From: Casimicrobiaceae bacterium
GTDB taxonomy: Bacteria > Pseudomonadota > Gammaproteobacteria > Burkholderiales > Casimicrobiaceae
Direction of reading: 5' to 3'
NCBI GenBank assembly: GCA_035939595.1
Contig: DASZFQ010000119.1
Span: 705 to 64,704, forward strand
DNA length: 64,000 nt
Numbering within the stretch: the first letter of the stretch is position 1; each line of letters opens with the position of its first letter. Made by a program: the position numbers and the translations under genes. Of this stretch, positions 13,306 to 22,648 are shown piece after piece. The notes under the pieces were generated by a model, which was given only the letters and a program-made list of their open reading frames with translations, did not search any database and was not told where the DNA came from.

Positions 13306-13665
13306 CCGGGGCCGCTGTGCGCCGGGCGGTACAATCACGGGCCTACGATCGCCATTGCCAATGGACCCAACGACCGCCGACAAGATCCGCGCACAGGCCG
13401 CGCCACCACCACAACTCTCGCCAACTGCCGCGCCCGGCGGCAGAGCACGCGCATCGGGCGCCAACTCGAGTGGCGCGAACGACAGTGCCTGAAGATGTGC
13501 GCATGGTTCGACGGTCGCTTCCCCGAGGTTGGCATCCAGACGCGGACAGTCGCCGTCGCTTCCGTCCACTAACGGCACCGGATCCGGAACGCATCGTTCT
13601 CGCACGTGCCGTTGCCTTGCCAAGCTTTGCGTCGCGGCTGGTCGCCGCGAGCGGGTGAGCGCGAT

Positions 13666-16494
13666 ATGGCGTATCTGCCCGCTTTCGTCAATCTCGTTCC
13701 GAAGAGCAGACGGCTGCTGCGCATCATCTGGCCATTCCTCGCCATTGTCGTCCTGCTGCTGGTTCTATGGAGCTTCAGCATGGATATTCTCTCGGCGACG
13801 CGTGCCTATGTCGGTGCCGAGAGCTTGTGGTCGAAGGCGCAGAAGGACGCGGTCTTCTACCTCAACCGCTACGCGGCAACGCGCTCCGAGACCGACTACG
13901 AACGATACCTGGTCGTGATCAGGGTACCTCTCGGTGACCGCAAGGCACGCGAGGAACTGGAGCAGGCGAGACCGAACACTGAGCGGGCACGAGAGGGATT
14001 CATCGAGGGGCGTAACCATCCGGACGATATCGCCGACATGATCTGGTTGTTCCGCCGCTTCAGGAACGTTGGCTATATCGACCGTGCTATCGCGATCTGG
14101 GCGGATGGCGACCGGCACATCGCCGAGCTGACCGACGCGGCGGAGCGGCTGCACCAACGCGTCGCGACCGGCCATGCCGACGAGGAGAGCCTCCGTCCGT
14201 TGCTGGAGGAGATCCGGCGCATCAACGGACAGCTGACGCCGCTGGAGGACAACTTCTCGTTCACCCTGGGCGGAGCCTCGCGGCGAATGCAGTGGGCGCT
14301 GATGTCCGCCACGCTGATGGTCGCGACCTTTCTGGTCGTTCTCGGCGTCATCCTGTCACGGCGGATGCTGAGCGAGAGCGAGGAATTCGAGAATGCGCTC
14401 CGCTTCAGCGAGGAGCGCTTCAATCTCGCAGTGATCGGGAGCAACGACGGCCTTTGGGACTGGGACGTTTTAACGGGCGACATCTATTTTTCGCCGCGCA
14501 GCAAGGAACTCGCGGGTTACGCTGATCACGAGATCGAGAACACGCCCGAGGCATTCTTCGCCTTGTTGCATCCCGACGACCTGGAGCCGGCACTGGCCGC
14601 GGCGAAAGCGCACATCCGCGACGATTGCCCGTACGATGTGGAATTCCGGGTGCGTGCAAAGAGCGGCGAGTATCGCTGGTTTCGGGCCCGCGGTCGATCG
14701 GTCCGCAACGCGGACGGTTGGGCAGTGCGCATGGCGGGTTCGGTAAGCGACATTAACGACAGCAAGCTCGCCGAAGCGCAGCTGTTTGCCGAAAAGGAAC
14801 GCGCTCAGGTGACGCTCAAATCAATCGGCGACGCCGTGATCACGACCGATCTCCGAGGGCGCGTGGAGTATTTCAATCCTGTCGCAGAAATCCTGACCGG
14901 ATGGAAGGCGCAGGAAGCTGAAGGCATGCCGCTTGCCAAGGTTTGCCGGTTGCTCGATGAGACGACGCGCCAAGCATTACCGGATGCGTTGGAACGGGTG
15001 GGGCGCGAGGGACGCACCGTGATGGCGGCTTCGAATGTGCTCCTCATCCGGCGTGACGGCACCGATATTGCGATCGACGAGTCCACGGCGCCGATCCGAG
15101 ATCGCAACGGTGAAATCGCCGGGGTGGTCTTGGTCCTGCACGATGTGAGACGCGAGCGCGAATACGCCAGCCAGCTCTCCTACCAGGCGAGCCACGACGC
15201 GCTGACCGGGCTGATAAACCGGCGCGAATTCGAGCACCGGCTCAACGTCGCCCTGGCGAGCGCGCGGGAATTGAACCGCACGCACGCGATGCTCTATCTC
15301 GATCTCGACCAGTTCAAGATCGTCAATGATACCTGCGGCCACGCCGCGGGTGACGAACTGATGCGCCAGGTGAGCATGCTGCTGCAGGGGCGCTTGCGCG
15401 AAGGCGACACGTTGGCGCGAATCGGCGGTGACGAATTCGGCGTCATCCTCGAGAATTGCTCTCCCGAGCACGCCGAACGGATTGCCGACGGGCTGCGCCA
15501 GACCATCACCGATTTTCACTTTGTCTGGCACGACCGCTCCTTCGCCATCGGCGTCAGCATAGGCCTGGTGCTCGTCGCCGAGGGTGCGCTCACCCTCGCC
15601 GACGTCTTGAGCGCGGGGGATGCCGCGTGTTACATGGCCAAGGAGAAGGGACGCAATCGCGTGCAGCTCTATCACCGCAAGGATAGCGAGTTGGCGGTGC
15701 GGCACGGAGAGATGGAGTGGGTTGCACGCCTGCACGCTGCCCTCGACGCCAACCGGTTCTGCCTTTACTCGCAGCGGATCATCGCGGTCAGCGCGCCTCG
15801 ACACCCTGCGACGATGTTTGAGCTCCTGCTCCGGATGGTCGACGAACAGGGGAAAGTGGTGCCGCCCATGGCATTTATTCCTGCCGCCGAGCGCTACAAC
15901 CTGATGCCTGCAATCGATCGCTGGGTCATCGGCACCGCGCTACCGATGGTCGCGCGCGCGCGGACGATCGATGGTGGCGACGCAGTCTATATGATCAACC
16001 TCTCCGGAGCCTCGATCGGCGACGAGCGCTTCCTCGACTTCATTCGCGAGCAGTGCGTCCGGTGCGGCGTGCCGACCGACGCCATCTGCCTCGAGATTAC
16101 CGAAACAGCAGCAATCGCCAACCTGGCGCAGGCAGCACACTTTATCGCCGAGCTGCGGGCAATCGGTTGCCGCTTCTCGTTGGACGATTTCGGCGCCGGC
16201 ATGTCATCGTTCGGCTATCTCAAACACCTGCCGGTGGACTTTCTCAAGATCGACGGCAGTTTCGTCACCGACATGCTAATCGATCCGATCGATGGCGCAA
16301 TGGTCGAGTCGATCAATCACATTGGCCATGTAATGGACAAGCAGACGATCGCGGAATTCGTCGAAAGCGACGCGATTCTGAACCGGCTTCGGGACATTGG
16401 TATCGACTACGCTCAGGGCTACGGCGTCGAAGAACCGAGGCCATTCCGCGTCGGCCGTGAGACCGCAGCAGTCAACGGTGCCGCGAGTGGTTAA
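13666..16494 (+). CDS. Membrane-anchored PAS-PAS-GGDEF-EAL c-di-GMP signalling protein
   Basis: Two TM segments flank an N-terminal sensor region; PAS regions; [11 protein letters not shown] (GGDEF); EAL-domain motifs LEITE, DDFGAG, KIDGSF. ATG 13666 preferred. Confidence 0.9.
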
Positions 16495-17732: not shown

Positions 17733-18620
17733 TCAATAAGGACACGAGAACGCCAGGATCTCCGACGGGTCGTCCTGGTAGGCGTGGCCGAAGCTAACCT
17801 GCCCGCGGGAGCGCAGCAGCAGCTCCTCGCGTCGCAGCACGATTTCGGCCTCGCCCTGAAGGGTAACGTAGGTGCCGTTCGAGCTGTGGTCGATGAGGGC
17901 AAACTTGTCGCGCCGGCGCTCGATATGCGCGTGCATGCGCGAGGCCTTGCGGTCAGCGATCACGACATCGTTCTGCATGTCGCGACCGATAGAAAGCGTC
18001 GGAGCCGCTTCGGAAAGCTCGATCTGACGATCACCATGCCTGAGCACGAGCTGCGCAGGGCGGACTTTGATGTGAGTCGACAACGCGGTGAGCTCGTCCT
18101 CCGCCTCCTGCCAGACCAGTTCGAACAGGTCGATGTCCTTCTGCTTGCCCTTCACCGTATGCGCCTGCTGACTGCGTGCACGCGCGCGCAACGCCGGCGG
18201 CAGTTCCTGCATCGTCTGGGCCGAGGTGAAAATCTGGCCGCCTCTGGCGAGATTCGACAGGCGCGCGGCGACGGTGACCGAATCCCCGAACACGTCGTTG
18301 CCCTCTTCGAGCACCGGGCCATAATTGAATCCGACATGGATGGCGAGAGGCGCACCGCGGGCGGTCCGTTGCACGGAGATGCGCGCCTGCATGTCGGTTG
18401 CCGCCCGGGCCGCGCCGTCAGCCGCTGGAAAGACGGCCATTACCTCGTCACCAATCATCTTCACGATACGGCCACCGCTGTCGACGCACGCCTGCCGGAT
18501 GATGGCCAGGCAGCGCTCGATCGTCGACAACGCCTCGGCGTCGCCGAGACTTTCGTACAGCTTCGCGCTGCCACTTATGTCGGCGAACAGAACGGCTAGA
18601 TTTCGCGGCTGCTTGTCCAT
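17733..18620 (-). CDS. Class III adenylate/guanylate cyclase domain fused to a C-terminal FHA domain
   Basis: Cyclase motifs VLFADISGS, VKMIGDEVMAVF, FGDSVTVAARL; FHA-like C-terminus (LSIGRDMQNDVVIADRKASRMHAHIERRRDKFALIDHSSNGTYV). ATG 18620 chosen because the upstream extension is non-homologous. Confidence 0.85.
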   Translation of the reverse strand: MDKQPRNLAVLFADISGSAKLYESLGDAEALSTIERCLAIIRQACVDSGGRIVKMIGDEVMAVFPAADGAARAATDMQARISVQRTARGAPLAIHVGFNYGPVLEEGNDVFGDSVTVAARLSNLARGGQIFTSAQTMQELPPALRARARSQQAHTVKGKQKDIDLFELVWQEAEDELTALSTHIKVRPAQLVLRHGDRQIELSEAAPTLSIGRDMQNDVVIADRKASRMHAHIERRRDKFALIDHSSNGTYVTLQGEAEIVLRREELLLRSRGQVSFGHAYQDDPSEILAFSCPY

Positions 18621-18680
18621 GGCAGTATGCTCGGCAGGCATTAAGTATAAGGCCGCGCGGCGCGCTGCGGAATATTCACG

Positions 18681-18710
18681 TTGACAGTCGTCGAGGGCGC
18701 GGCCTAGTAT
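18681..18710 (+). promoter_or_regulatory. Sigma70-like promoter for the FecR-like/DUF3365-HAMP/kinase operon
   Basis: TTGACA (18681-18686), 18-nt spacer, TAGTAT (18705-18710); consistent with the ATG at 18763 being the start. Confidence 0.4.
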
Positions 18711-18762
18711 GGAAATGGAATGCGGGCCGCCGTCCTGGCGGACGATCACGCGGCATCCCTCG

Positions 18763-19719
18763 ATGAAAGCGACATGGTTGGTTGGATGTTCCCTGTTCCT
18801 CGCATCGGCGCTGTCTTTCGGCGCCGACGTGGGGGTCGTTACGGTCCTGGACGGAAATGCGCGCGTGCTGCGAGGCGTGAGCTGGTACAGACTGATCGAG
18901 GGCGCACGCCTGCAGGACGGGGACGTCATCGACGCATCGGATCACGCGCAGGTGCAGATCGAGCTGGCGTCAGGGCCGATCGTCAGCTTTGTCGGCTCAG
19001 CGGAACTTTTCGCCGCCGGCGCCGGATCGCGCGAGGGCAAGCAACCGGCACCCGCGGAGATGTACTTGACTCGCGGTTGGCTGAAGCTGGCGGTGAAGGC
19101 CGGCGCGGGCGCGTTGCGCGTGCGCTCGCCTGCGGGCGCCTTGGCCACGAGCGACGGGGTGGTGGTCATGCACGCCGAGCCCGAAATCCTCGAGGCGTTC
19201 GTGGAACGCGGCAGTGTCCGACTGATCGAGCCCGTCAAGGCCGCCGGAGAGGGAGGGGCGCACGATCTCAAGGACGGTGATTTTGCGATTCGCGCCAGCG
19301 ACCGGCCGTTCGCCAGCGCGGGCGCGGCGCCACAATCCTTTGTCTCCGCCATGCCGAGACAGTTCAGGGACCCGCTGCCTAGCCGTGCGCAGCTCTATCA
19401 GGTGTCGCACGTGCAACTTGTAGCGGACCGTCCGATCAGCTATGCCGAAGCCGAGCCGTGGCTGACGGGCCCCTACCGGAGGGTCTTTCTCAAGCGCCTG
19501 GAGCCGCGCCTCGCGGACCCGGAGTTCCGCGCCCTGGCCAGTGGCAAGAGCCAGGCGTATCCGGAATGGCACAGCGCCCTGGTTCCGGGCGAGAATGCGC
19601 CTGCGGACAAAGTCGAGGCGCCGCCGAAGCCGGCAGAGAAGACCGAGAAGACCGAGAAGACCGAGAAGACCGAGAAGTCTGAGTCGAGCTGGTGGCCATT
19701 CGGCAATTCGAAGAAATGA
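18763..19719 (+). CDS. Secreted FecR-like domain protein with a C-terminal (EKT)n repeat
   Basis: Signal peptide MKATWLVGCSLFLASALSFGA; FecR-like segment VTVLDGNARVLRGVSWYRLIEGARLQDGDVIDAS...VQIEL; charged repeat tail. Confidence 0.6.
   Translation: MKATWLVGCSLFLASALSFGADVGVVTVLDGNARVLRGVSWYRLIEGARLQDGDVIDASDHAQVQIELASGPIVSFVGSAELFAAGAGSREGKQPAPAEMYLTRGWLKLAVKAGAGALRVRSPAGALATSDGVVVMHAEPEILEAFVERGSVRLIEPVKAAGEGGAHDLKDGDFAIRASDRPFASAGAAPQSFVSAMPRQFRDPLPSRAQLYQVSHVQLVADRPISYAEAEPWLTGPYRRVFLKRLEPRLADPEFRALASGKSQAYPEWHSALVPGENAPADKVEAPPKPAEKTEKTEKTEKTEKSESSWWPFGNSKK
19636..19680 (+). repeat. In-frame 9-bp tandem repeat (GAGAAGACC x4 plus the variant GAGAAGTCT)
   Basis: Read directly: gagaagacc gagaagacc gagaagacc gagaagacc gagaagtct, encoding EKTEKTEKTEKTEKS. 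Confidence 0.95.
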
Positions 19720-19756
19720 ACGCAAGGGCAACACGGACCGGGTTCCAGGGAACGCC

Positions 19757-20629
19757 ATGAAGCTGATGTGGAAATTCAATCTCGTGCTGCTCGCGGTCTT
19801 CGTCGTGGGCCTTATCGCCACGGGCCTCATTTCGTACAACGTGGTCCAGGCCAACGCGCGTGAGGAGATTCTGGACAATGCGCGCGTGATGATGGAAGCG
19901 GCGTTGTCCTCGCGCAGTTATACGAATACACAGGTCAAACCGCTGCTCGAGACGCAGCTCAAGTACTCCTTCCTACCGCAATCGGTGCCGGCGTACGCCG
20001 CAACCGAACAGTTCAACGACTTGCGCAAAAAGTATCCCGACTACAGCTACAAGGAAGCGACGCTCAATCCCACCAACCCGCGCGATCGCGCGACCGATTG
20101 GGAAGCCGACGTCGTCAACAAGTTCCGCAACGGCCAGGCCAAGACTGAGCTTATCGGCGAGCGCGATTCGGCCACCGGGAAAACGCTGTACCTCGCCCGA
20201 CCGATCCAGATCAAGGAGGCGGCCTGCCTCACCTGTCACAACACGGTGGCCGAAGCGCCGAAGACGATGATCGAACTGTACGGGCCGGCCAACGGATTCG
20301 GTTGGAAGTTAAACGAGATTGTCGGCGCGCAGATCGTTGCCGTTCCGAGTGCGCTTCCGATCCAGCGCGCCGACCATACGTTCAAGGTTTTCATGCTGCT
20401 GCTGACGCTTGTTCTCGTCCTCACATTCATTTTGATCAACGTCATGCTGCATTCGATCGTGATCCAGCGTATCAAGCAGCTCTCCAAGCTCGCTGACGAG
20501 GTCAGTCTCGGCCATCTCGAGTCGGCCGAGTTTAAGAGCAAGAGCAAGGACGAGATCGGTGTCCTTACCGGTGCTCTCTCGCGGATGAATAAGAGCCTGG
20601 TTCAGGCGATCAAGATGCTCGAGGCGTAG
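19757..20629 (+). CDS. Two-TM sensor: periplasmic Tll0287-like (DUF3365) heme-c domain + HAMP domain, with no output domain
   Basis: TM1 FNLVLLAVFVVGLIATGLISY; CXXCH site CLTCH (20225-20239); TM2 VFMLLLTLVLVLTFILINVML; HAMP (IVIQRIKQLSKLADEVSLG...DEIGVLTGALSRMNKSL); ORF ends about 10 aa after the HAMP. Confidence 0.8.
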   Translation: MKLMWKFNLVLLAVFVVGLIATGLISYNVVQANAREEILDNARVMMEAALSSRSYTNTQVKPLLETQLKYSFLPQSVPAYAATEQFNDLRKKYPDYSYKEATLNPTNPRDRATDWEADVVNKFRNGQAKTELIGERDSATGKTLYLARPIQIKEAACLTCHNTVAEAPKTMIELYGPANGFGWKLNEIVGAQIVAVPSALPIQRADHTFKVFMLLLTLVLVLTFILINVMLHSIVIQRIKQLSKLADEVSLGHLESAEFKSKSKDEIGVLTGALSRMNKSLVQAIKMLEA

Positions 20630-20666
20630 CGTAACCCTGGAGATTTGAGGCCTCGATATTTCCCTC

Positions 20667-22055
20667 ATGGCTGAACCGGAAAAAATCGGCAAGTATGTCA
20701 TTCAGAGCGTCCTCGGCAAGGGCGCCATGGGGGTCGTGTACAAGGCCTTCGATCCGCATATCGAGCGCGTGGTCGCGATCAAGACCGTGCGCAAGGACCT
20801 GGTCGATCCCGACCTCGCGGTGCAGGTGATGGCGCGGTTCCAGAACGAGGCCAAGGCTGCGGGGCGGCTGCTGCATCCGAACATCGTCAGCGTCTACGAG
20901 TACGCCGAAGACGAAATCAACGCCTTCATCGCGATGGAGTACGTCGAAGGCACGGGCCTGCGGGAATACCTCAACCGCAAGGCGAGCTTCGATCTCGGGC
21001 AAATCGTGGCGATTGTTTCCCAGCTGCTGCTGGCCCTGGATTTCGCGCACGAGCGCGGTGTCGTGCACCGGGACGTGAAGCCTGCCAACCTGATCCTGAC
21101 CAGTGGCGGCACGCTCAAGGTCGCCGATTTCGGCATCGCGCGCATCGACACGTCCAACCTCACCAATGCCGGCATGGTCATGGGCACGCCGTCCTACATG
21201 TCTCCCGAGCAGTGCCAGGGCAAGGAGGTCGATCGCCGCTCCGATGTGTTTAGCACGGGCGTAGTCTTGTACGAACTGCTGACCGGTGAAAAACCTTTTT
21301 CCGGATCGATCGAAGCCATCGCTTTCAAGATTTGCTATGAGGAACCGCGCCCGCCGTCGGAGATTTCCAAGCTCGTACTCTCGCCGGCGCTCGACGCGAT
21401 CGTCGCGACGGCCTTGGCCAAGGATCAGGGCACACGGTTCCAAAACGCGAAGGCCTTCAACCGCGCGCTGCGACTCGCGCTCGATCCGGAGATCAGTATC
21501 AAGCGCGAGGCACAAGACGCGACGGAGATCAATCTTGCCGCGGTCAAGCTGCAGGCTCAGGCGGTCCCGGTTTGGGACGACACGACGCTGCACACCATCG
21601 AGCGGCAACTCGCCGACCTCGTTGGCCCGATGGCACGGGTGATGGTCAAGAAAGCGGTCGCGAAGTCCAGGGACACGGCCGAGCTATACACGCTGCTGGC
21701 CGAGAGCATTTCCGATCCCGAAGTGCGCACGAAGTTCGTTGCCGGGATGGCCGGCTCGACCGCCGAGCACGCCGCCACAAACCAGACCGGCACCGGAGCG
21801 CGCCGCACGTTGCCACCACAGTTGCGCTCGCTCAGCGGCGGCGTGGAAGCCTTGGCGCCGCTTGACCCGGAATTCGTCGAGCAGACGACCTCGAGGCTCA
21901 TCGTCTACCTGGGGCCGATCGCCAAGGTGGTCGCACGCAAAGCTGCGGCAAACGCGGGCAACCGGCAGGAATTTGTCCAGCGCCTCGCCGACCATCTTGG
22001 GGCGCAGGAGCGTGGCGCCTTCCTGCGCGAGTCAGGTTTCGTCGAATTCGAGTGA
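20667..22055 (+). CDS. Hanks-type serine/threonine protein kinase with a duplicated uncharacterised C-terminal module
   Basis: LGKGAMGVVY, VAIK, HRDVKPANL, DFG, SPE motifs; no TM segment; two related modules of about 50 aa in the C-terminal 160 aa. Confidence 0.9.
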   Translation: MAEPEKIGKYVIQSVLGKGAMGVVYKAFDPHIERVVAIKTVRKDLVDPDLAVQVMARFQNEAKAAGRLLHPNIVSVYEYAEDEINAFIAMEYVEGTGLREYLNRKASFDLGQIVAIVSQLLLALDFAHERGVVHRDVKPANLILTSGGTLKVADFGIARIDTSNLTNAGMVMGTPSYMSPEQCQGKEVDRRSDVFSTGVVLYELLTGEKPFSGSIEAIAFKICYEEPRPPSEISKLVLSPALDAIVATALAKDQGTRFQNAKAFNRALRLALDPEISIKREAQDATEINLAAVKLQAQAVPVWDDTTLHTIERQLADLVGPMARVMVKKAVAKSRDTAELYTLLAESISDPEVRTKFVAGMAGSTAEHAATNQTGTGARRTLPPQLRSLSGGVEALAPLDPEFVEQTTSRLIVYLGPIAKVVARKAAANAGNRQEFVQRLADHLGAQERGAFLRESGFVEFE

Positions 22056-22648
22056 ACACGTTCTATCACGACGGCAGCCGGAAGTTGCAAGACCGGTTCG
22101 ACGCCCGGCGTCTCGCCGATCGCATCGAGCAGCGGCTGGTTAAGGATCGAATCGGCGACGAAGACAAGGCGTTCATCGAGTCGCTGGACATGTTCTTCTT
22201 GGCAACTTCGGACGGGGACAACCAGCCAAGTTGTTCGTACAAGGGCGGTCAGCCCGGTTTCGTGCGCGTCGTCGACCCCGGTACGCTCGCCTTTCCGACC
22301 TACGACGGAAACGGCATGTTCCTGTCGATGGGAAATGTAGCGACGAATCGCCGCGTGGGCATGTTGTTCATCGATTTCGTGCGACCGAATCGGCTGCGAA
22401 TCTCGGGTGAAGCGTCGCTACATTTCGACGACCCGCTGCTTGCTGCTTATCCCGAGGCGCAACTCATCGTGCGCGTGGCCGTCACGCGCGTTTTTCCGAA
22501 CTGCCCGCGTTACATCCACAAGTTCACGCTCGTCGAACGCTCGAGTTTCGTGCCGCATGCCGGCTGCGCGACGCCTATTCCAAACTGGAAAAAGAGCGAC
22601 TGGGCTAAGGACGTCTTGCCGGAGGGCGAACCTGAGCGCCGCACCTAG
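22052..22648 (+). CDS. Pyridoxamine 5'-phosphate oxidase-like (FMN-binding split-barrel) family protein
   Basis: Family-like pattern (FFLATSDGDNQPSCSYKGG...LAFPTYDGNGMFLSMGN...); GTG start overlaps the kinase stop (GTGA). Confidence 0.7.
   Translation: MNTFYHDGSRKLQDRFDARRLADRIEQRLVKDRIGDEDKAFIESLDMFFLATSDGDNQPSCSYKGGQPGFVRVVDPGTLAFPTYDGNGMFLSMGNVATNRRVGMLFIDFVRPNRLRISGEASLHFDDPLLAAYPEAQLIVRVAVTRVFPNCPRYIHKFTLVERSSFVPHAGCATPIPNWKKSDWAKDVLPEGEPERRT

Follow-up and report, generated by a model that had tools for sequence, protein, structure and literature searches.

Positions 17733 to 22648 of a 64,000-nucleotide stretch of DNA from a Casimicrobiaceae bacterium (assembly GCA_035939595.1, contig DASZFQ010000119.1; the whole stretch is called the window below) hold a gene for a class III nucleotide cyclase fused to an FHA domain and, divergent from it, genes for a FecR-like protein, a heme-c receptor of the Cache_heme-HAMP (CHH) type, a soluble Ser/Thr kinase and a PNPOx-like protein. 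We argue that the product of this locus is probably a transmembrane sensor system of the CHH type whose output is a cyclic nucleotide, the signal being relayed to cyclic AMP (cAMP). Judged by every sequence feature that could be tested, its core is a member of the CHH receptor-kinase pairs. An earlier note, written from the DNA sequence alone, had presented the locus as an undescribed signalling system, a claim that fails for the receptor-kinase pair, which was described in 2026 (bioRxiv 10.64898/2026.05.25.727664). No description exists, however, of the FecR-like partner, of the proposed FHA-cyclase output or of the broader recurrence of FHA and cyclase outputs.

Results

The receptor and the kinase match a characterised CHH pair

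The DUF3365 domain has been redefined as a heme-c-binding Cache domain, sCache_heme, and a Pseudomonas azotoformans protein in which Cache_heme lies between two transmembrane (TM) segments and is followed by HAMP binds nitric oxide (NO) with sensor-like behaviour (bioRxiv 10.64898/2026.02.01.703092). In May 2026, Deshpande, Xu, Dunleavy, Zhulin and Crane described a CHH receptor of P. azotoformans and the Ser/Thr kinase whose gene adjoins that of the receptor (bioRxiv 10.64898/2026.05.25.727664). According to this preprint, a PknB-like catalytic domain is followed in the kinase by two helical bundles at the C-terminus, with neither a TM segment nor PASTA domains, and a structure determined by cryo-electron microscopy (cryo-EM) at 3.47 Å shows the bundles binding two HAMP subunits via the helices IGPLARFLVRKSLN and IGPIARIVVSRALR. 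Binding between kinase and HAMP is nanomolar and independent of ATP, and NO on the heme raises the phosphorylation of Thr256 in the HAMP domain. The only further linked gene that the preprint mentions encodes a PP2C phosphatase, and the downstream consequences are stated to be unknown. The words FHA and FecR are absent from the preprint, where cyclases occur only as domain fusion partners (bioRxiv 10.64898/2026.05.25.727664).

The receptor gene of the window (19757-20629, plus strand) encodes 290 residues, of which residues 31-197 match the Tll0287-like/DUF3365 family PF11845 over the whole profile (E = 7.6e-43). Hydrophobic segments at about residues 8-28 and 210-232 complete a layout of TM1, periplasmic Cache_heme, TM2 and cytoplasmic HAMP, with no output domain. 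The heme-c attachment motif CLTCH occupies residues 157-161 (20225-20239, plus strand), and its Cys157, Cys160 and His161 are invariant across 50 diverse homologues. The HAMP domain spans residues 232-289 of 290 (20450-20623, plus strand); its Pfam score of 20.2 bits is under the 25-bit cut-off, and it aligns with the HAMP structure of Af1503 at E = 1.2e-3. Pfam, hydropathy and the Af1503 match agree with the receptor that the earlier note had drawn, with two TM segments, DUF3365, CLTCH and a cytoplasmic part made of HAMP only. By analogy with the P. azotoformans preprint, we infer that the HAMP domain is the docking site of the kinase. An invariant Ser250 of the receptor was considered as a phosphosite and rejected, because it aligns with A291 of Af1503, which we take to be a core-packing position.

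The receptor has thousands of homologues, many of them about 290 residues long. The family is very abundant in soil metagenomes, where 7,999 of the 8,000 word-sharing candidates scored were significant. The best 120 homologues are 84-91% identical to the window receptor, and most lie on short contigs of Casimicrobiaceae or Betaproteobacteria.

The kinase gene (462 residues; 20667-22055, plus strand) starts 37 nt past the receptor stop. Its product matches Pkinase with E = 8.2e-54, and the catalytic domain (residues 10-263, with AIK at 37, HRD at 134 and DFG at 154) is followed by a C-terminal dyad of helical repeats. Hydropathy gives no membrane segment apart from the core kinase helix, and PASTA domains are absent. 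The catalytic domain is 54% identical to that of the P. azotoformans CHH-associated kinase, the reference being a supplement sequence read by optical character recognition. Two docking motifs lie in the tail: VGPMARVMVKKAVAK at residues 319-333 (21621-21665, plus strand) matches the HAMP-contacting helix IGPLARFLVRKSLN of the preprint, and LGPIAKVVARKAAAN at residues 415-429 (21909-21953, plus strand) matches IGPIARIVVSRALR. The two repeats resemble each other weakly (32% over 34 residues). No usable match to the tail came from NCBIfam or from a Pfam set without the PF26309 model, and PDB sequences, in a set lacking the preprint's cryo-EM entries, gave only a chance match; the records of orthologous kinases list PF26309 (DUF8082). 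The earlier note had described a TM-less Ser/Thr kinase with a duplicated unknown C-terminal module. The Pkinase match, the hydropathy and both motifs bear out this description, and, from its sequence, the module is the HAMP-docking dyad, PF26309 DUF8082.

The pair of the window and that of P. azotoformans share the receptor architecture with a CXXCH motif, the HAMP end, an adjacent soluble PknB-like kinase and two HAMP-binding helices of the IGP(L/I)A(R/K) type on that kinase. They differ in their company, as P. azotoformans has an operon of receptor, kinase and PP2C genes, whereas the window shows no PP2C within about 10 kb of the module and has a FecR-like gene and a divergent cyclase-FHA gene in addition; the phosphosite Thr256 has no conserved Thr counterpart in the family, and residue 256 of the window receptor is Ser. 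That an output-less sensor and an input-less kinase could be two halves of a split receptor kinase, as the earlier note had supposed, has been shown experimentally for the homologous pair (bioRxiv 10.64898/2026.05.25.727664). We are highly confident that the kinase docks on the receptor in this locus as well.

The divergent gene encodes a predicted adenylate cyclase with an FHA domain

The gene that is divergent from the others (17733-18620, minus strand) encodes a protein of 295 residues with Pfam matches to Guanylate_cyc (E = 7.5e-15) and, at the C-terminus, to FHA (PF00498, E = 8.6e-12); the fusion of a class III cyclase with an FHA domain that had been read from the sequence is thereby upheld. 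The catalytic domain (residues 6-161; 18138-18605, minus strand) has the metal-binding Asp14 and Asp58, the adenine-type Lys54 and Asp111 and the transition-state Arg122, all conserved in 21 aligned orthologues with one K-to-Q exception. Given Lys54 and Asp111, ATP is predicted as the substrate, and the enzyme is predicted to be an adenylate cyclase. At the position of the transition-state Asn the window protein has Thr118 (codon 18267-18269, minus strand), as seen in the alignment of its GDSVTVAARL with GDAVNVAARL of PDB 3mr7. Among the 20 orthologues that cover this column, 18 have Asn, and Thr is found only in the window and in an 89%-identity relative (locus L002 of the survey below).

The FHA domain (residues 210-277; 17790-17993, minus strand) has kept the residues that bind phosphothreonine (pThr): Gly212-Arg213, Ser227, His230 and Asn248-Gly249 are invariant in the 21 orthologues. 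Between cyclase and FHA runs an acidic linker, EDELT(178)ALS. Its Thr178 (codon 18087-18089, minus strand), about 30 residues ahead of the FHA domain, is invariant in all 21 aligned orthologues within the motif EDELT(178)xL. We propose, by analogy, that Thr178 is a candidate target of the kinase and a candidate FHA ligand, to be bound either in cis or between the two chains of the cyclase dimer. A literature search on FHA-fused cyclases gave nothing relevant. Cya1 of Synechocystis is an FHA-cyclase fusion.

Conservation of the neighbourhood

Related loci were collected by a scan with an alignment of 13 receptor sequences, taking one genome per species; 80 of at least 581 loci were kept, with receptors 53-89% identical to that of the window, and labelled L001 onward. 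Among their sources are Betaproteobacteria, Acidobacteriota, Myxococcaceae, Methylomirabilis and Hahella. Neighbours were counted with tblastn; home-made gene callers lost the FecR-like gene or admitted antisense open reading frames (ORFs), and a third was adequate for clustering only. Single-linkage clustering merged the kinase and cyclase-FHA proteins, and domain-level queries with phmmer were used instead.

The gene immediately before that of the receptor codes for a FecR-like homologue in 63 of 77 loci, and a kinase with the dyad is encoded downstream of the receptor in 62 of 73 (56 on the same strand and 6 convergent). The order FecR-like, receptor, kinase is kept across betaproteobacterial and acidobacterial loci whose flanks are unrelated. 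The cyclase-FHA gene lies divergent and upstream in 18 of the 71 loci with enough sequence by tblastn, and in 20 loci in all by phmmer. In reverse look-ups from cyclase-FHA homologues (62-70% identity), three out of three adjoined a receptor-kinase pair. The 20 loci belong to one clade of Casimicrobiaceae and Burkholderiales soil metagenome-assembled genomes (MAGs), with receptors at least 60% identical to that of the window. The neighbourhood that the earlier note had put forward is conserved widely for receptor and kinase and in one clade for the cyclase-FHA gene. Within the clade the outer flanks differ, being TctC-type genes, genes for thiolase and pantothenate kinase, opp/DUF1028 genes or DctPQM genes.

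FHA readers and class III cyclases recur beside the pair in other wirings

FHA readers and class III cyclases are recurrent partners of the receptor-kinase pair in different wirings. A T6SS-type Fha protein (FHA with T6SS_FHA_C; T6SS, type VI secretion system) is encoded next to the operon of FecR-like, receptor and kinase genes in seven loci of Variovorax, Azohydromonas, Azoarcus and Burkholderiaceae (L033, L038, L039, L054, L065, L070 and L076). PP2C is also present in L033, L039 and L065, TssM in L033, L038, L039, L054 and L076, and TssL in L039, L054 and L076. The Fha gene of L054 and L076 is divergent and upstream of the FecR-like gene, in the very place that the cyclase-FHA gene has in the window.

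The operon is embedded in T6SS clusters in L039 (8752-20867) and also in L033, L038, L054, L065 and L076. It suggests that a heme-sensor-docked kinase replaces PpkA in these loci. The seventh locus, from Azoarcus sp. TTM-91 (L070:9026-13891), is an isolated four-gene unit of FecR-like, receptor and kinase genes with a convergent Fha gene, flanked by genes for RecC, a helicase, AcrB and a DUF3482 GTPase and with no T6SS genes within 10 kb. Genes of the caspase family Peptidase_C14 were also seen in the T6SS clusters (L039:19527-20867, L054:18261-20099 and L076:17283-18857), and in L039 the caspase domain is fused with a TssJ (T6SS-SciN) lipoprotein domain. In the window, an Fha with T6SS_FHA_C, PP2C and T6SS structural genes are absent within about 10 kb on either side of the module.

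In nine loci (L046, L049, L051, L052, L055, L058, L071, L077 and L078) the gene directly after the receptor has, in place of the kinase domain, a class III cyclase-like domain joined to the docking dyad. Guanylate_cyc matches three tested fusions (L046, L051 and L071) with E-values of 5e-6 to 9e-8; the L078 protein had no Pfam match, and the other assignments are by phmmer. L051 and L055 also carry a dyad-bearing kinase upstream. Coordinates were recorded for L046:10881-11978, L051:3932-5026, L055:10896-11975, L071:6505-7632 and L077:1708-2811. By eye, the substrate-specifying positions of the fusions hold Leu and Asn, not Lys and Asp. In seven of the nine loci a signal-peptide protein of about 170-240 residues without a Pfam match is encoded in place of the FecR-like protein.

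Two single cases stand beside these fusions. In a Hylemonella MAG (L074:2404-4524), a 706-residue protein encoded after the receptor combines Pkinase, a cyclase-like domain and the DUF8082 dyad; the cyclase-like domain scores 20.9 bits, slightly under the Pfam cut-off of 21.9 bits. In L081 (10905-11399) the gene after the receptor encodes a protein of 165 residues made of the dyad only, perhaps a docking module in its own right, perhaps a kinase that has been truncated or frameshifted.

The FecR-like protein

The FecR-like gene (18763-19719, plus strand) encodes 318 residues with an N-terminal signal-like segment and no other hydrophobic segment in the hydropathy profile. After a beta-rich FecR-like domain (about 22-186) come a helical one (about 190-273) and a disordered tail, rich in Lys, Glu and Pro, that ends in WPFG. 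The window protein itself has no match in Pfam or NCBIfam even at E <= 10, so the FecR-like call of the earlier note finds no direct profile support; it stands on the homologues, 20 of the 43 others aligned matching PF04773 (FecR; best E = 2.3e-7), and on a structural model. The AlphaFold2 model (pLDDT, the predicted local distance difference test score, 82.9) matches the periplasmic domains of the FecR-family regulators 4m0n and PupR (6ovk) in Foldseek with E of about 1e-5 and probability 1.0.

With FecR/PupR anti-sigma regulators the protein shares, according to the model, the fold of the periplasmic beta-rich domain. It differs from them in having no cytoplasmic anti-sigma domain and no internal membrane anchor, and in its extra helical domain and charged tail. 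On the model and these features, it is a FecR-like periplasmic protein and not a FecR regulator, as the cytoplasmic anti-sigma part is lacking. No gene for an extracytoplasmic function (ECF) sigma factor or a TonB-dependent transducer was seen next to it, and a literature search for FecR combined with CHASE2, kinase or FHA gave nothing relevant. The disordered tail (window 19590-19719) has TEK repeats (EKTEKTEKTEKTEKSE) and a conserved terminal W-P-F-G, and its length differs widely among homologues.

Gene spacing, promoter and other neighbours

On re-analysis the five ORFs and their spacings are the same as in the earlier note: 142 nt between the divergent cyclase-FHA and FecR-like genes, then 37 nt, 37 nt and a 4-nt overlap. 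Its domain assignments for cyclase, FHA, DUF3365, kinase and PNPOx are likewise backed by Pfam scans. A sigma-70-like promoter is predicted 53 nt upstream of the FecR-like gene (TTGACA, 18 nt, TAGTAT; 18681-18710, plus strand). The description of this site as near-consensus suits mainly the TTGACA hexamer, since TAGTAT matches TATAAT at four of six positions; the site has 10 of 12 matches overall, and each shuffle of the 5.2-kb region is expected to yield only 0.8 sites of this kind.

The last gene (22052-22648, plus strand) encodes a PNPOx-like split-barrel protein of 198 residues with a PNPOx_N match at E = 3.3e-14; TIGR04025 scores 81 bits, under its cut-off of 170 bits. The domain assignment stands, and the gene was rejected as a member of the signalling module: a PNPOx gene comes after the kinase in just 4 of 73 loci, and a locus with an 85%-identical receptor has none downstream of its kinase. 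Four other loci have a PNPOx gene beside a cupin gene some 8 kb upstream of the module, at a distance of about 10 kb from the kinase. The PNPOx-like gene is a local passenger or accessory outside the conserved module.

A large PAS-GGDEF-EAL protein with an N-terminal membrane region is encoded at 13606-16494, 1.2 kb beyond the cyclase-FHA gene, with a DUF1993 and a cupin gene between. The closest relative (L001/L002) retains this gene, and a few other loci (L014 and L020) have related ORFs near the module.

Discussion

How the parts may work together is suggested by the homologous pair and by comparison of loci. The receptor's Cache_heme domain would carry a covalent heme c at CLTCH and bind a small ligand, most likely NO, and the signal would cross the membrane to the C-terminal HAMP dimer. 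The kinase would be permanently docked on this dimer via its two C-terminal repeats, one kinase per receptor dimer, and ligand binding would alter what the docked kinase phosphorylates. These steps, ligand binding, the crossing of the membrane and the altered phosphorylation, have been shown in the homologue and are carried over to the window. Comparative genomics suggests the next one, in which the FHA domain of the cyclase-FHA protein would read the resulting pThr. This residue could belong to the autophosphorylated kinase, or it could be the cyclase-FHA protein's own Thr178, bound, as in GarA/OdhI, either in cis or between the chains of the obligate cyclase dimer. Adenylate cyclase activity would then be switched and the cAMP level would change. 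The FecR-like protein may serve as a periplasmic accessory of the receptor, comparable to TagR for PpkA.

A relay from pThr to a cyclic nucleotide was already the suggestion of the earlier note. It has been strengthened by the 20 divergent loci, the three reverse look-ups, the Fha genes in the same slot and the cyclase-dyad fusions, and it is not proven. That FHA readers and class III cyclases recur as partners in other lineages is what a functional connection would predict. We consider that the T6SS-Fha loci and the cyclase-dyad fusions, two independent findings in other lineages, carry more weight than conservation within the clade.

Several points weigh against the relay to cAMP. The proposed connection between kinase and cyclase comes from comparative genomics, and the papers that support the model are preprints. 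The role given to the FecR-like protein is a guess. The phosphosite Thr256 of P. azotoformans has no family-wide Thr counterpart: the HAMP connector shows no Thr-rich column in 50 receptors (that of P. azotoformans not among them), and in the window it holds Ser only. Phosphoserine is not read by FHA domains. The cyclase-FHA link is limited to one clade and to about a quarter of the sampled loci, so part of its conservation is explained by shared ancestry, and nine loci with receptors more than 60% identical to that of the window lack the gene. The window cyclase has Thr at the transition-state Asn position and may be weakly active or attenuated in this lineage; the change is not decisive, as the class III cyclase Ma1120 also lacks Asn in the same alignment column. 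The specificity for NO comes from one homologue, and its authors allow for another heme ligand (bioRxiv 10.64898/2026.05.25.727664).

Alternatively, the receptor-kinase pair may be real and the cyclase-FHA gene a mere neighbour inherited in one betaproteobacterial clade, the true substrates being elsewhere, such as the receptor itself or unlinked proteins. The restriction to the clade, the close relatives without the gene and the naming in the preprint of PP2C as the only further linked gene (bioRxiv 10.64898/2026.05.25.727664) all fit such an account. Yet adjacency and divergent orientation persist while the outer genes change, an FHA domain depends on a Thr kinase and no other lies nearby, and different FHA-domain proteins occupy the same slot in other lineages; we regard a mere neighbour as unlikely. 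It is less likely still that the change from Asn118 to Thr has impaired the window cyclase and left a pThr-dependent scaffold or regulator that is not a source of cAMP. Among the 20 sequences covering the position the Thr is confined to the window and L002, and the column is confirmed by the 3mr7 alignment; the remaining catalytic residues are nevertheless kept, the gene is evidently conserved, with many relatives at 80-97% identity, and the example of Ma1120 indicates that the position may tolerate change.

The input side might also differ, with the receptor sensing periplasmic redox state or another heme ligand and the FecR-like protein acting as the primary ligand sensor that signals to the receptor. 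Stand-alone Cache_heme proteins act as redox proteins (bioRxiv 10.64898/2026.02.01.703092), the authors of the CHH study allow for another heme ligand (bioRxiv 10.64898/2026.05.25.727664), FecR-family domains are periplasmic signal receivers, and no output is as widely conserved as the FecR-like partner. The only characterised CHH receptor, however, binds NO with sensor-like kinetics, and in P. azotoformans oxidation or reduction of the heme alone shifted phosphorylation less than NO did. No genes for NO metabolism or iron uptake were seen next to the module in the window, which also speaks against this input, and we hold it to be very improbable. A CHH sensor with its docked kinase and an output through the cyclase-FHA protein is the reading that we prefer.

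A parallel in logic is the T6SS pathway of Pseudomonas aeruginosa, TagR/TagQST-PpkA-PppA-Fha1 (PMC6423157). Both have an envelope signal, a periplasmic accessory and a Hanks kinase, and in both the pThr is read, or would be read, by an FHA effector encoded beside the kinase. In contrast to PpkA, which is one membrane protein with a periplasmic domain, sensor and kinase of the window are separate polypeptides, and the window FHA domain is fused to a cyclase, with no T6SS_FHA_C, PP2C or T6SS genes within about 10 kb of the module. The window locus resembles the TagR/PpkA/PppA/Fha1 pathway in its logic but is not a member of it.

The cyclase-FHA protein also recalls a second type of FHA regulator. 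GarA and OdhI of Actinobacteria are small FHA proteins with a kinase-targeted Thr outside the FHA domain that could be bound in cis, and they regulate metabolic enzymes through binding. The window protein hits the NCBIfam model of OdhI with E = 1.8e-6, below the cut-off, and its invariant candidate site Thr178 lies similarly some 30 residues before the FHA domain. Unlike GarA and OdhI, the window protein has a nucleotide cyclase covalently linked to its FHA domain.

The T6SS-embedded loci bear on Azoarcus olearius BH72, which lacks TagQRST (PMC6423157). The PpkA homologue of this strain, Azo3888, aligns with PpkA over only about half of its own length, and two genes, Azo3886 and Azo3887, lie between it and PppA (Azo3885); strains mutated in ppkA are deficient in T6SS-2 secretion (PMC6423157). 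If these two were genes for a FecR-like protein and a CHH receptor, the existing ppkA mutants would link a CHH-docked kinase to an FHA output.

It is conceivable, and we put it forward tentatively, that CHH modules are a general platform in which a periplasmic heme ligand, probably NO, is converted into pThr that is read by interchangeable FHA outputs, these being cAMP in Casimicrobiaceae-like soil Betaproteobacteria and T6SS firing in relatives of Variovorax, Azohydromonas and Azoarcus. The FecR-like protein would be a co-sensor, and in a third wiring the dyad would recruit a cyclase-like domain without the kinase.

The preprint on the P. azotoformans pair leaves the output open, and the window and its relatives name concrete outputs that can be tested. 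The FecR-like protein, encoded in some four out of five of the sampled loci, is a periplasmic partner that had gone unremarked. If true, an FHA-gated adenylate cyclase would directly connect Hanks-type Thr phosphorylation with cAMP in bacteria, and the T6SS Fha switch would provide the missing input for T6SS phosphorylation pathways in bacteria without TagQRST. As the module is very abundant in soil metagenomes, the CHH signal, possibly NO from denitrification, may matter ecologically.

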